Shown in pieces: positions 1,311 to 13,734 of a DNA stretch of 31,581 bases. Every line of letters starts with the position of its first letter. Within the stretch, counting starts at the first letter, position 1. The notes under the pieces are model-generated. The model was not told the DNA's origin and made no database searches. It saw only the letters and a list, made by a program, of their open reading frames with translations. The stretch covers positions 1-31,581 of IMG/VR virus record IMGVR_UViG_3300049009_000104, one strand, 5' to 3'. The position numbers and the translations under genes are program-made. The stretch comes from a virus. Taxonomy: Duplodnaviria > Caudoviricetes.

Positions 1311-2153
1311 TTATTCTGTACAAGTGATGTCAACACAACCACCAGCATCGATAGCGACAGCGCCAGCACTAAACATTGAGCTAACTAACCAAGAGGTTTT
1401 CTCTGGGATGTAGTTGATCTCACTGCGAATTGCCATGCTTTCAGCCATACCGACAGCCATTTTGTGGTAAGCATACACCTTGCGGGTAGAACCTGAACCA
1501 CCGCCAGTTAAACCGCCTTCAGAGCGATCACCGATAGTGATGAAGTTAAATCCCATGAATGATGTAATGTCACCTTGCACTAATGCTTTAACGCTGTTGA
1601 AGTCAGAACTTGTGACAGCAGTCTCAGACAAAAGGCTAGACAATTGTGAAGCATGAATCAGCATATAGCGATCTTCTGCTGGTACGTTTGCAGTGTTCAT
1701 CAAACGAGCAGCTTCACGCAACTTAGCCATGTTCATGTTTGTACCAGCGCCACCAATGCTAGTAGCAACTGTCAAGCTGGTGCTTGATGCTGCCAATGCG
1801 TCAATGATCATCTGATCAGAACGGCGACCAATAGCTTTAGCAACAACTTGCACCAATTCTTGGCGCTCGTCAAAGTTAACTTTAGCTTGGTTAAAGATAT
1901 CGCTGTATTCAGCAGCAATGTAGTCAGTCAGTGTGACTGTGGCCTGAGAGTAGGTCACATTCAAAGGAGTTACATCAGTCTGAGGAACTCGGACTTGTGC
2001 AACACCAGCACCAATTTTGGGGAACTTGTGAGTGGACGCAGTGACACCAGTACGCAGACGGACAGTGTTACGCAGGACAGCATCAGCTTGATATGCCTGT
2101 TTAACTTCCGTGTCGAACAAGGTCACAAATGCATTAGAAATGCTAATTGACAT
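1311..2153 (-). CDS. Major capsid protein (HK97 fold, BPP-1-like podovirus type)
   Basis: 280 aa; MSISISNAFVTLFDTEVKQAYQ...FPKIG, DFNSVKALVQGDITSFMGFNF motifs; SD AGGAG; follows scaffold. Confidence 0.9.
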   Translation of the reverse strand: MSISISNAFVTLFDTEVKQAYQADAVLRNTVRLRTGVTASTHKFPKIGAGVAQVRVPQTDVTPLNVTYSQATVTLTDYIAAEYSDIFNQAKVNFDERQELVQVVAKAIGRRSDQMIIDALAASSTSLTVATSIGGAGTNMNMAKLREAARLMNTANVPAEDRYMLIHASQLSSLLSETAVTSSDFNSVKALVQGDITSFMGFNFITIGDRSEGGLTGGGSGSTRKVYAYHKMAVGMAESMAIRSEINYIPEKTSWLVSSMFSAGAVAIDAGGCVDITCTE

Positions 2154-2195
2154 TTGTTTCTCCTAGAAACGGTTGATGAAAAGTTTATCGCCAAC

Positions 2196-2287
2196 GGTTG
2201 TCCAGAAGAATCTGGGCCTAGACTTGTGTGTTACCCCCACACCAGGGAGCAGACTACTGCTGTCATGGGCCTTGCGGTTATCCATGA
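2196..2287 (-). promoter_or_regulatory. Structured 5' leader of the capsid gene with two GG-AYAA-CC/GG-C-CC internal-loop hairpins
   Basis: CAUGG-AUAA-CC-GCAA-GG-C-CCAUG and GG-C-CCAGA-UUCU-UCUGG-ACAA-CC, plus two intervening hairpins. Confidence 0.6.
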
Positions 2288-2291
2288 TTAC

Positions 2292-2322
2292 ATTATAGAA
2301 CACACTTTCTAAGGGTTGTCAA
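2292..2322 (-). promoter_or_regulatory. Sigma70-type capsid promoter, TTGACA-N19-TATAAT
   Basis: Perfect -35 (2317-2322) and -10 (2292-2297) with a 19-bp spacer. Confidence 0.65.
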
Positions 2323-2330
2323 CTAATTTT

Positions 2331-2613
2331 AAGCATAGTTTCCCCAAGGGTGGTAGCCAATGCTATCCAGCCCTACCCAGAGGGTCATGCTTTAAGGGGT
2401 AGTTAATCGAATAACTCCCCCCTAAAACCAACCATCCCAGTAAACCCTTGAGGCAGCGATTCATCCAACACTGACTTGTCCCACCCATGTATCAGTGTTT
2501 ACCCTAGTCCCTCGCTGACAGGCTAGTAGGGTTATCTTGGGGGTGTATCCAAGCCCTGTGTTCTCTTCCAAGCAGTCCATGCAGACCCACTGGTATCGTC
2601 TGGAGTACGGAAG
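2331..2613 (-). ncRNA. Candidate highly structured non-coding RNA (~285 nt)
   Basis: No credible ORF; at least six hairpins and two potential loop-loop/pseudoknot pairings. Confidence 0.5.
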
Positions 2614-2626
2614 TCAATGCACAAGT

Positions 2627-2729
2627 AAAAAAGCCGCTTACTACTGCATATTGGTTGCACCCTTTGAGAATCCCCAAAGGCAATACGCATGAGTAAACGG
2701 CTTTTAAACCTGTTGTGTGCAACGACAAC
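2627..2729 (-). ncRNA. Candidate antisense/attenuator RNA reminiscent of P4 CI / P1 C4-type phage riboregulators
   Basis: 5' hairpin whose loop contains GUUGCAC, then a long stem with 7-nt bulge GUGCAAC ending in a U6 tract; G-U pairs favour the minus strand. Confidence 0.6.
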
Positions 2730-2735
2730 GCAATC

Positions 2736-2764
2736 AGTATAGACGAAAAAAAGCCCCCACGCAA
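2736..2764 (-). promoter_or_regulatory. Sigma70-type promoter TTGCGT-N17-TATACT embedded in the scaffold terminator
   Basis: -35 at 2759-2764, -10 at 2736-2741; predicted +1 near 2729 coincides with the first base of the 5' hairpin. Confidence 0.6.
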
Positions 2765-2773
2765 GTAGGGGCT
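2746..2773 (-). terminator. Rho-independent terminator after the scaffold gene
   Basis: AGCCCCUAC-UUGC-GUGGGGGCU stem-loop followed by a U-run. Confidence 0.8.
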
Positions 2774-2814: not shown

Positions 2815-3582
2815 TTAACCATACATCTTTTCAAAGAGCTTTTCAACCTTTACCCTGAAAGCTGGTTCCTTTTTATATCTTGGATCAGCAACCATGGCAT
2901 CCAGTTCTTCTTTGGATACAGATCCTTCAGGGTTAGATTTAAGGGTATCTACTGGTACTCTGCCCTCATATGTCTCTCTCAGCTTAGACAGCGCTTTAAT
3001 GCCCCTAGCAGTGTCTCCCCAGCGTGTAAATTCCTTAAATTCATCTTCACCCCAAATACCCTTGTTGACCATCCCACGACCCCATGTAGCCATGTTGGAA
3101 ATGATTGCCTTGGCATTAGGGCCAAGTTCTTCCATTTCTTGCTCCATGGATCTTCTGGTTAAAGTTTCTTGATCACCAGATACAGTGGTTACTTCTTTTG
3201 CTAGATCCTCAAATGCTTGCTGGGAGATGCCGTACTTCTGCGCCCAACTTGTGTATGCCTGTGCCACTGGATCATTATCCTGTAGACCAGCAGCTTCTAA
3301 GTTGTATTTGCCGTCTTCTGGTGGCTTGTGTGAACCAGAGCGGAACTTCTTCTCTAGCTCTACATAGGACTTGCTAATACCTTCTAGATCAGGTTCAGCC
3401 TTATCTTTGTTCCAAAACTTCTCAGGCCAAAAGTCTGGACGCTCAAGTGGAGAATCTTCCTCAAAAGTAGGATCGCCTTGAATGTGATTGATTGCTTGCT
3501 CTTGGCCCTCGGTTGTCTGCTGTGCTGGCGCTTCTTCGGCAGCGGCTTGTAGCAGGCCAGGGTTGTCATTTGCTTCGCTCAT
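2815..3582 (-). CDS. Capsid scaffolding (head assembly) protein
   Basis: 255 aa, acidic; RPDFWPEKFW...SYVELEKK motif and C-terminal DPRYKKEPAFR; between portal and capsid. Confidence 0.8.
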   Translation of the reverse strand: MSEANDNPGLLQAAAEEAPAQQTTEGQEQAINHIQGDPTFEEDSPLERPDFWPEKFWNKDKAEPDLEGISKSYVELEKKFRSGSHKPPEDGKYNLEAAGLQDNDPVAQAYTSWAQKYGISQQAFEDLAKEVTTVSGDQETLTRRSMEQEMEELGPNAKAIISNMATWGRGMVNKGIWGEDEFKEFTRWGDTARGIKALSKLRETYEGRVPVDTLKSNPEGSVSKEELDAMVADPRYKKEPAFRVKVEKLFEKMYG

Positions 3583-12246: not shown

Positions 12247-12528
12247 TTAAAAGGGAATGTCATCATCCATGTCAGCAAAGCTCTTAGATACAGGTTTCTG
12301 TACGAGAGCAGGCTTCTTGGATTCATAACTGCCAGATTGTTGTTCAACAGGAGCGCCAAGCTTCAAGCTGAAATAGACGTTGCCAGTCTTATCATCCACA
12401 TTGCGCCATGCTGATAACCAGAACTGTTGACCAGATTGGTCTGTCCACTTACCTGTTAGATCAGGATGTGAGTCTTTTTCTTTGCGGGGATTCTTTCGCA
12501 GGTTCCCACCTGCTTTAGCAGCTTCCAT
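12247..12528 (-). CDS. Small ssDNA-binding-like protein with acidic DDDIPF tail
   Basis: 93 aa; PDLTGK...FWLSAW...YFSLKL core and SSB-type C-terminal tip; SD AAGGAG. Confidence 0.7.
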   Translation of the reverse strand: MEAAKAGGNLRKNPRKEKDSHPDLTGKWTDQSGQQFWLSAWRNVDDKTGNVYFSLKLGAPVEQQSGSYESKKPALVQKPVSKSFADMDDDIPF

Positions 12529-12557
12529 CTGTTATCTCCTTTTTGAAGTGCAATTTA

Positions 12558-12606
12558 ATGCTATCACGATAAAGACATTGCACACAACTATTATTTGTGG
12601 CATAGT
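12558..12606. promoter_or_regulatory. Overlapping divergent promoters (minus: ssb-terS operon; plus: ncRNA candidate)
   Basis: Minus TGa-TAGCAT (12558-12563); plus TTGCAC-N17-CATAGT with extended -10 (12578-12606). Confidence 0.5.
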
Positions 12607-12611
12607 TCAGT

Positions 12612-12797
12612 TGGGGCCATCACTCAGCCCTCCAAAAGGCAGGCAGCTTACCAATTGGGATAAACGTACCGCATCCATCAGGACTTCCAGTAGCACGAGC
12701 GAACAGGGCCATACAGGTGGAGCCAACAACTAACAATCGTTGGTCAGGTTAGATAAACAAGGTGCTGCATCTCTAACGAGATCTAATCACTTTTTTT
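12612..12797 (+). ncRNA. Candidate structured ncRNA (~185 nt)
   Basis: Plus-strand promoter upstream, several hairpins including two GAT-AAAC...GC-ATC stem-loops, ends in a T7 run. Confidence 0.35.
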
Positions 12798-12830
12798 AGT
12801 GAGTGCCATAGTTCGTCCACCATCTAGGTT

Positions 12831-12864
12831 TTGTCCACAGGACAATAAATGCCATTTGTCCACA
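12831..12864 (+). promoter_or_regulatory. Two DnaA-box-like nonamers (TTGTCCACA); possible origin
   Basis: TTGTCCACA at 12831 and 12856, 8/9 match to TTATCCACA, downstream of an HTH initiator-like gene. Confidence 0.4.
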
Positions 12865-13089
12865 AGAAATTAATAGCATCCAGCAACTAGCTACCAAGCT
12901 GATTATTAGAAAAAAATTGTGTGAGATACCCCTACGGTAAGGTGGGGGGTCGGGGGGGCAAAGGGTCGATTCTAAGCTGGAAGTATTACAAGCAGCTGTA
13001 AGCCTATCCCCTGCCATACCGAGCAGAATTGAAGTAATACCTGCTTTATACAATGTCCATTATGTTAACTAATCAGCGAGTAGTAGCAA

Positions 13090-13734
13090 TTAAGTTAACA
13101 TTCTAGCCAGCACCTGCTCGATGTCAGCCACTGTCGCTGCAGGCCCTGCCTGCTGCTGCGCTGCCGCGAATATCTCAGCACCTACTGCTTTGCTTAGTTG
13201 CTCAATTGTCATTTCATCTATAGTCTGTTGACTATCTGCCTGCTTCAGATTACTAACCCGCTGGTCAGTTACTTTATCTGCTTTGCGTTTTCCCATGGTT
13301 TCCCCCTTTGCCCCTGTAGGCTGTTGATTTTCTTGCATATATGGCGCTGTTTCACCTGTAATCCCTATGATGTCAGCAAGGCTTAGATCTGCCTTGTATA
13401 TGACCTGCCTTGTATGCGCTCGTTCACCCTTAAAACCGTAATAAATGACCTTTACATATCCTGCTTTGATCAAAGCCCTGGTATGCACTGCTGCCCTGTT
13501 TAGGCTGATTTTGAAATGATCTGCTATCCTTTGCAGGCCCACCCAGGTCAACCCTGCCCTGTTGCTGTAAGCACAGAGCATAAGCAGTACCCTTAGCTGC
13601 ATTTCAGTTATTGATCTGTCAGTGATAGCCCTAAACGGAACCACAGCGAAATGACGCAGATCTGGCTGCTTTTCTTTTTGCTTGATCCGTGGCTTTTTGG
13701 GCAGGTTTATAGGTACTGGCTGCATGGCCTGCAT
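13090..13734 (-). CDS. Winged-HTH protein, putative replication initiator
   Basis: FAVVPFRAITDRSITEMQLRVLLMLCAYSNRAGLTWVGLQRIADHF...ALIKAGYV, typical of phage HTH initiator N-termini. Confidence 0.6.
   Translation of the reverse strand: MQAMQPVPINLPKKPRIKQKEKQPDLRHFAVVPFRAITDRSITEMQLRVLLMLCAYSNRAGLTWVGLQRIADHFKISLNRAAVHTRALIKAGYVKVIYYGFKGERAHTRQVIYKADLSLADIIGITGETAPYMQENQQPTGAKGETMGKRKADKVTDQRVSNLKQADSQQTIDEMTIEQLSKAVGAEIFAAAQQQAGPAATVADIEQVLARMLT

Follow-up and report, generated by a model that had tools for sequence, protein, structure and literature searches.

The window analysed here is the whole stretch of 31,581 nt, a virus record that represents a podophage genome of 94% completeness. 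Capsid identity, gene order and PHROG matches relate it to the Methylophilales phage MEP301, a cultured OM43 phage (PMC9004378). On the minus strand, a gap of 661 nt separates a head scaffold (capsid assembly) gene (2815..3582), assigned by a weak phrog_1052 match and by synteny with MEP301 gp32, from the major capsid protein gene (1311..2153), which shows 64% identity to its MEP301 counterpart. The gap folds with a z-score of -8.4 relative to its own shuffles (20 shuffles). Behind the scaffold gene, which forms the upstream border of this slot, a terminator scan found an intrinsic terminator of the scaffold transcript (2745..2773, minus strand) consisting of a 9-bp hairpin (2773-2752) and a U-tract. 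The downstream border is made up of the capsid-gene promoter (TTGACA 2322-2317, TATAAT 2297-2292) and a conserved capsid leader (together 2154..2322, minus strand), both outside the element described below. Capsid-mRNA contigs from RNA data end at 2259-2277. The leader (2154-2290, minus strand) carries a GGACAACC-like motif twice, which is kept in the short and filled gaps inspected in relatives; it has no Rfam match and is possibly autoregulatory. No tyrosine integrase was found in the record, an absence that does not show a plasmid state, and GC skew across the window displayed no switch point.

Between these borders a promoter-like sequence, a 5′ hairpin and a long bulged stem ending in a U-tract follow each other on the minus strand from 2764 down to 2627. 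Coordinates and letters of all these parts, which we call the head, agreed with those given in an earlier note on this DNA. The predicted σ70 promoter (2736..2764) consists of a -35-like TTGCGT (2764-2759), a spacer of 17 nt and TATACT (2741-2736), and is nested in the scaffold terminator as the note had described, with its -35 hexamer inside the terminator loop. A stock consensus promoter scan did not list it (the -35 matches at only 3/6 positions). The hexamers of related phages support the prediction: a TTG-hexamer lies within the scaffold-terminator loop in 33/40 filled slots, the window counted, and in 0/29 short slots (see below), and in 95/98 head copies 6-7 nt separate the end of the best -10-like hexamer from the hairpin. 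Judged from sequence, transcription would start near 2729 with hairpin P1 (2712..2729; 5 bp and an 8-nt loop, GUUGU-C-GUUGCAC-ACAAC), which has 95% of cells paired and two-sided changes at one pair. The following long stem, a predicted attenuator or terminator (2627..2705), comprises the stem proper (2705-2629) with a 2x2 internal loop, an apical hairpin and a 7-nt bulge, and ends in six U (2632-2627). The bulged stem with the bulge open is the minimum free energy structure (-50.4 kcal/mol, z = -6.97), and 0/200 shuffles were as good. The resulting head RNA (2729-2627) has 103 bases and occurs as a single copy in the window. The letters confirm that the bulge GUGCAAC (2654..2660) is the exact reverse complement of the loop GUUGCAC (2717..2723).

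Head copies were collected from viral contigs with a search pattern made of the two basal-stem arms only, which left loop and bulge free. The scan yielded at least 120 stretches (approx. 210 estimated), and the addition of capsid-selected loci gave 135 matches corresponding to 98 distinct copies, a set from which one locus lacking the GTTG start was excluded. The loop register was set by the 5′ hairpin alone. In a MAFFT alignment the bulge of many rows is off by one column, and loop-bulge pairs were counted by script instead. All seven positions formed Watson-Crick pairs in 98/98 distinct copies, which together use 24 different codes. When loops were swapped among copies, on average 12.2 and at most 24 copies remained perfect in 1000 shuffles, compared with the 98 observed. 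Among 43 further copies found with a covariance model, 41 were perfect (7/7), one contained a G-U pair and one matched at 5/7 positions. Co-variation of loop and bulge among homologues, on which the earlier note had made its reading depend, is thus present (98/98 and 41/43). The code turns over fast: of 302 copy pairs that agree to 90% or more in the rest of the sequence, 170 have different codes. The copies are related and the events not independent; 24 codes still need many compensatory changes.

The geometry of the head is narrowly constrained. The end of the bulge lies 21-26 nt from the stem end in 98/98 copies, the linker measures 5-10 nt, and six to seven of the seven bulge nucleotides are unpaired in 97/98 stem folds. 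In full-length folds, the basal stem was shut right before the U-run in 98/98 copies, a count in which the basal-stem letters had belonged to the search pattern; the terminator-like character ascribed to stem and U-tract thereby agrees with the predicted folds. The U-run itself comprises 6-8 U in 91/98 copies. In folds of the growing transcript, loop:bulge pairing had a probability above 0.5 in 96/98 copies at +4 (4 nt synthesized beyond the bulge), in 43/98 at +8, in 8/98 at +14 and in 0/98 at +30. Since the pairing peaks at +4 and vanishes by +30, it would be favoured just before terminator closure becomes possible, as far as a nested model without pseudoknots approximates a kinetic switch. 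A promoter-like site for an antisense RNA was present in 1/96 copies (consensus scan only), and a second, seqC-like target within 450 nt downstream in 4/96 copies, where 2.6 were expected. There is no conserved leader peptide, and frames starting at the stem ATG vary freely in length. A coding role of the element was rejected, as the ORFs over it match no PHROG and the stem-ATG frames are of any length. It is highly probable that the head is an attenuator with a self-specific code.

Database comparisons returned few matches to this RNA. Rfam gave nothing at gathering level in the window or in 15 related loci, and nothing in 14 further loci. A cmscan of the region 2100-2900 against C4, c4-2 and isrK, the check that accompanied the earlier assignment, gave no match up to E 10; only generic hairpin matches appeared there. 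When 50,697 phage and 72,556 plasmid records were compared with the cassette by blastn, a single one gave a useful match, the unannotated spring-water phage MW202484.1, and no plasmid record was matched by head, body A or body B (the two bodies are described below). We found no description of the head RNA in the literature; it could stand as an anonymous candidate in Weinberg 2017 (PMC5737381), Weinberg 2010 or Fremin 2023 (PMC10690425), and six supplement files of the last contained no match to the cassette. Three cellular-genome matches of the head RNA all fall on phage-like contigs within betaproteobacterial MAGs, and the phage host is therefore probably a freshwater betaproteobacterium.

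To place the element in its genomic context, we compared the slot between scaffold and capsid gene among 80 capsid-gene relatives, 68 of which had a measurable gap. The slot was short (212-313 nt) in 29 and filled (571-978 nt) in 39 of them, and the capsid promoter and leader are common to both classes. Filled slots contain the head followed by body A or body B, in some cases with an additional ORF. One slot (L068) holds only an ORF, while in L048 the same slot is occupied by an initiator gene (phrog_270, E 1e-20) and a pair of 34-nt repeats; in L027 the bulge half of the head is lost. The copies selected by the search pattern lie at many unrelated genome places, mostly in the replication region. 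All these data indicate that the head RNA is the front part of a mobile cassette that normally resides in the replication region; its position in the head module, regarded as special in the earlier note, is incidental. The cassette seems dispensable or redundant in this clade, as the slot is short in 29/68 relatives and two relatives with filled slots (G014 and G015) have long initiators, one of them with repeats. A packaging RNA was rejected, given the presence of terminase genes and the absence of the cassette from 29/68 relatives.

Several further inserts were observed in these slots and at related loci. L010, L014 and L015 contain a different structured insert of approx. 75 nt in the scaffold-capsid slot without Rfam match. 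Small ORFs that look HNH-endonuclease-like by eye stand behind body B or alone in L028, L032, L057, L064, L068 and L452, and may mobilise the cassette. In L039, L040, L041, L211 and L212, an extra hairpin-bounded insert of approx. 150-170 nt separates the head from body A.

Downstream of the 98 heads we found body A with both end motifs in 38 cases, an A-like start only in 21, body B in 15 and other sequences in 22, while two regions were too short. In L142, an HTH_36 initiator gene accompanied by two iteron-like repeat pairs begins 20 nt 3′ of the head, the sole direct case among the 98; a scan for relatives of this initiator returned L142 itself only. The claim that the head gates a non-coding element holds insofar as the sequence 3′ of the head is non-coding, and has to be extended insofar as what is gated most likely serves replication, a role that the note had not named.

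Body A of the window (2325..2610, minus strand) is a covarying, pseudoknotted non-coding element of approx. 285 nt, which may serve as an RNA-dependent origin. In an alignment of 13 copies, 20/50 predicted pairs displayed compensatory changes, and 51 non-redundant members share a long-range covarying helix. The pseudoknot (2454..2517, minus strand) pairs the loop CAGCGA (2517-2512) with TCGCTG (2459-2454); its columns 98, 99, 102 and 103 with 162, 161, 158 and 157 were 100% paired in the 51 copies, with all pair types and top mutual-information ranks. Relative to the genome strand, body A shows no marked excess of G (G 3772, C 3178). Its GGAG..CTATG end is also a ribosome site with start codon in some loci. 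The A subfamily of the window occupies the capsid slot in 52/52 copies and stands beside a truncated initiator in 0/52; a head precedes it in all 48 copies whose upstream DNA is long enough, 45 of them recognized by profile and 3 by eye. One contig of 307 nt from a lake RNA library spans 2318-2611 and runs 13 nt further. Partial body A contigs occur in three other RNA studies, and the contigs of two studies end at 2622-2624, just beyond the U-tract. Ends, strand and level cannot be read from such contigs, which are possibly DNA-derived, and they are therefore a weak hint. The head itself was covered by no contig of the RNA libraries, a lack of coverage that proves nothing either way.

The same bodies are also preceded by other heads. 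A second head type of the same design had pairs of 7-9 nt in 7/7 copies checked by script. By eye, at least three other head types consisting of a promoter, a 5′ variable segment and a long U-ended stem were recognized (L023, L028, L032-L034, L038, L015; L219, L235, L245, L249, L255, L259, L271, L277, L389; L252, L262, L264, L384; L453), of which type 2 is script-verified. In types 3 and 4, pairing at two contacts was likewise seen by eye, and the script did not confirm it.

ORFs around the heads were clustered, the largest cluster being spurious frames over the cassette itself. The commonest real neighbour was a stand-alone protein of 117-150 aa, encoded in 20/73 loci with more than 1 kb of flank. 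It matches the C-terminal part of an initiator only (phrog_9474 positions 178-276 of 288, E 5e-15), and full-length proteins with the same C-terminal domain exist. Among 80 loci selected by the truncated initiator alone, 42 contained the head (41 within approx. 450 nt), 43 body A and 19 body B, the bodies amounting to 62/80; neither A, B nor a head was found in 13/80. In contrast, head, A and B were present in 0/80 loci selected by the full-length initiator, an imperfect control because those phages are mostly from other hosts and habitats. The GenBank phage MW202484.1 displays the cassette layout between cro and rusA. A third body family, C, behind the same head contains two or three DnaA-like boxes in 9/9 copies, whereas 56/63 other bodies have none; a box was accepted with at most one mismatch to the consensus. 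The body behind the head of L089 is the Betaproteobacteria-1 RNA (RF02932; 83 bits, cut-off 49.4), which was entered in Rfam as an sRNA without the head context, and this suggests a replication role of the orphan motif. The same body family stands behind the head in L089, L125, L154 and L191 (scored for L089 only). A search for Betaproteobacteria-1 hit 1/151 genomes of the order Burkholderiales, in an uninformative context.

The replication region of the window itself harbors a short HTH_36 replication initiator (13090..13734, minus strand) of 214 aa, without the repeat-bearing middle part of its relatives of 291-307 aa. Initiators of this clade fall into two classes, a short one of approx. 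200-225 aa without clear repeats and a long one of 291-313 aa, in which 5/6 have repeats. Facing the initiator gene, a second, headless C-like body (12578..12767, plus strand; body 12613-12767) lies behind a promoter-like TTGCAC-N17-CATAGT and is followed by DnaA-like boxes at 12831 and 12856 (region 12578-12870). It was detected by nhmmer with E 1e-5, using a profile from nine LB-linked family-C copies only. A headless C-like body with its own promoter adjoins the short initiator in 10/17 close relatives including MEP301 (33432-33565, weak), two of the ten having been in the iterated profile, and 0/6 long initiators; two other types of relatives have different inserts at its place. We regard 12578-12870 as a candidate second, ungated origin. 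On the opposite strand, a weak DUF2815-motif match (12526-12631, minus strand; E 0.71), situated upstream of the gene for the single-strand binding protein, overlaps the start of the C-like body. A C-rich/G-rich stretch between initiator and ssb (12930-12960, minus strand), present in all relatives inspected, is perhaps a packaging or genome-end signal.

Taking these data together, the best joint explanation, to which we give an even chance, is an attenuator head that gates body A, with body A as an origin of phage DNA replication that depends on RNA; that body A is part of an RNA-dependent origin, taken by itself, appears slightly more probable. The link to replication rests on the arrangement of head and initiator in L142, the slot swap in L048, the neighbourhood of truncated initiators, the DnaA-like boxes of family-C bodies and the C-like bodies beside short initiators. 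In the proposed scheme, the bulge would pair with the 5′ loop as soon as it leaves RNA polymerase, ahead of synthesis of the 3′ arm of the basal stem. This pairing would delay terminator closure, and polymerase would read into body A. Terminated transcripts of approx. 100 nt would expose the same bulge and, at rising level, bind in trans to the loops of newly made transcripts, whereupon the terminator closes. The outcome would be negative feedback on origin firing, that is, copy control. The block would be limited to phages sharing the same 7-nt code, amounting to incompatibility or replication-level immunity, and such a code-specific block would account for the rapid change of the code on a constant scaffold. 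Body A would act like a ColE1-type primer or R-loop RNA and open the DNA for helicase loading by host proteins or the truncated initiator, the least supported step. In this phage the cassette may serve as a spare origin or a state-specific one, or may simply be a passenger: 29/68 relatives lack it, two carry it together with long initiators, only half of the head is left in L027, and a second, ungated body accompanies it in the window.

An unlikely alternative keeps the CI-like attenuator but takes body A, instead of a cis origin, for an RNA acting in trans, such as a scaffold to which the truncated initiator or a replication protein of the host binds. The elaborate, pseudoknotted fold of body A and its recovery as a discrete RNA-library contig of approx. 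300 nt, with contig stops at 2622-2624 as a weak hint, would suit such an RNA, as would the fact that body A stays beside the truncated initiator whether this gene lies upstream or downstream. However, the A subfamily of the window resides far from any such gene (capsid slot in all 52 copies), and the DnaA-like boxes of family C together with the replacement by initiator plus repeats in L048 point to a site acting at the DNA level.

It is rather improbable that head and body form a long regulatory leader, acting by antitermination or translation control on the following gene, without any origin. The ribosome site and ATG at the end of A do start the truncated initiator in several loci, and the head of L142 directly gates an initiator gene. 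Yet the cassette is also kept where the initiator fragment lies upstream, or where a strong capsid promoter follows immediately 3′ and the ATG opens only a few codons, and the lengths of stem-ATG frames follow no rule.

We consider it distinctly improbable that the bodies are folded single-stranded DNA signals for single-strand initiation or primosome assembly, exposed by read-through, with the RNA copy of A having no role. Plasmid motifs described by Weinberg 2017 may work as ssDNA (PMC5737381), and 24/125 downstream regions had their best match to ColE1 (NC_001371.1) at 1549-1531 on the minus strand, identical over 18-19 nt (up to 19/19; score 38 compared with a shuffle maximum of 31 in 60 shuffles). 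This site lies approx. 350 nt past the origin, and a leading-strand primosome site is placed 'further downstream' of the ColE1 origin (PMC3167613); from its position only, the matched site may be ssiB. In contrast, the one-sided G-U/G-T changes and the pseudoknots suit RNA, and the match is absent from the window, whose own A start is the other variant. A longer module containing the ColE1 20-mer was rejected, since the likeness stops at approx. 20 nt. Finally, a fixed intramolecular knot or an oligomer contact of a small RNA (pRNA- or nanocage-like) without attenuation is very improbable: perfect pairing alone does not prove trans action, and the tight linker and bulge position also suit a fixed tertiary contact, but the rapid change of the code agrees with selection for self-specificity, a body or initiator gene invariably lies 3′ of the RNA, the phage has ordinary terminase genes, and many relatives do without the cassette.

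Returning to the gated RNA-dependent origin, a broader proposal is tentative and just short of an even chance: freshwater betaproteobacterial phages may use modular RNA-based origins, composed of a promoter, an interchangeable same-strand attenuator head with a 7-9-nt barcode and an ornate RNA body that replaces the iteron-binding half of the initiator. RNA-initiated replication has been described for two plasmid families only (PMC3035462). If true, the cassette would join ColE1 and MRB as a third kind of replicon run by RNA and would be the first in phages using host enzymes, its copy control and incompatibility would be set by a terminated leader rather than an antisense RNA, and the orphan Betaproteobacteria-1 motif would gain a job. 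Should the cassette serve as an origin, a further, modular form of such replication would operate in abundant lake phages, and the short 'broken' initiator genes would be accounted for. With its 7-nt code, the 100-nt attenuator comes in at least 24 natural and orthogonal classes of specificity; it is a possible synthetic-biology part, and the natural codes offer a ready test of phage incompatibility or immunity. As MEP301 is cultured and has a related body beside a short initiator, the idea is directly testable there.

Among known systems, ARRPOF, GEBRO and PAGEV resemble the cassette as structured motifs of 223-349 nt tied to replication (PMC5737381), although head and body A of the window match none of these or Betaproteobacteria-1. 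The MRB plasmids of Vibrionaceae have a Rep-less origin of approx. 500 bp built of structured RNAs, in which small loop differences lead to compatibility (PMC3035462). Compared by description, the cassette would share the RNA-structured origin and the specificity set by small loop differences; in contrast, RNA I of MRB is antisense and fully complementary to RNA II (68 nt with two stems, in a 110-bp core), whereas no antisense unit was seen in the cassette. In ColE1, the host-polymerase transcript is the origin activator and a small RNA is both copy control and incompatibility determinant (PMC5043065, PMC3640518), and the cassette would be organized likewise; in addition, some A starts share approx. 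20 identical nt with ColE1 1549-1531 on the minus strand. Unlike in ColE1, the regulator of the cassette is same-strand and not antisense, the body measures 230-290 nt instead of 550, and the system is located in phages. Homology of body A to ColE1 RNA II was rejected: the two look alike by eye, but the 51-copy A profile finds nothing at RNA II or the origin. Without a profile match to RNA II or the origin and without a plasmid record match, the cassette is not a member of the ColE1 family and probably not of the MRB family, and at most works like one.

The closest parallel in mode of action is P4 CI. N15 CA and P1 C4 are related leader RNAs of the P4 CI kind. In P4, the same-strand leader RNA pairs with seqA of its own transcript and thereby controls premature termination (PMC4825925, PMC3632133). 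Unlike the CI family (C4 RF01695 and isrK homologues), the head has no Rfam match, makes one 7-nt contact only and has no downstream seqC-like target; moreover, its intrinsic terminator is built into the bulged stem and usually gates a non-coding body, not genes. The CI/C4-like label of the earlier note therefore holds for the way the head would work, as P4 CI does on seqA, and not for membership in C4, c4-2 or IsrK. Like P4 CI, the head carries an unpaired segment complementary to, and co-varying with, an upstream target in the same leader, and it would likewise use a 5′ target of its own transcript for termination control upstream of replication functions. By analogy with P4, the head is probably a kinetic attenuator; its terminated product would act in trans and compete for the loop, in the manner of CI and seqA.
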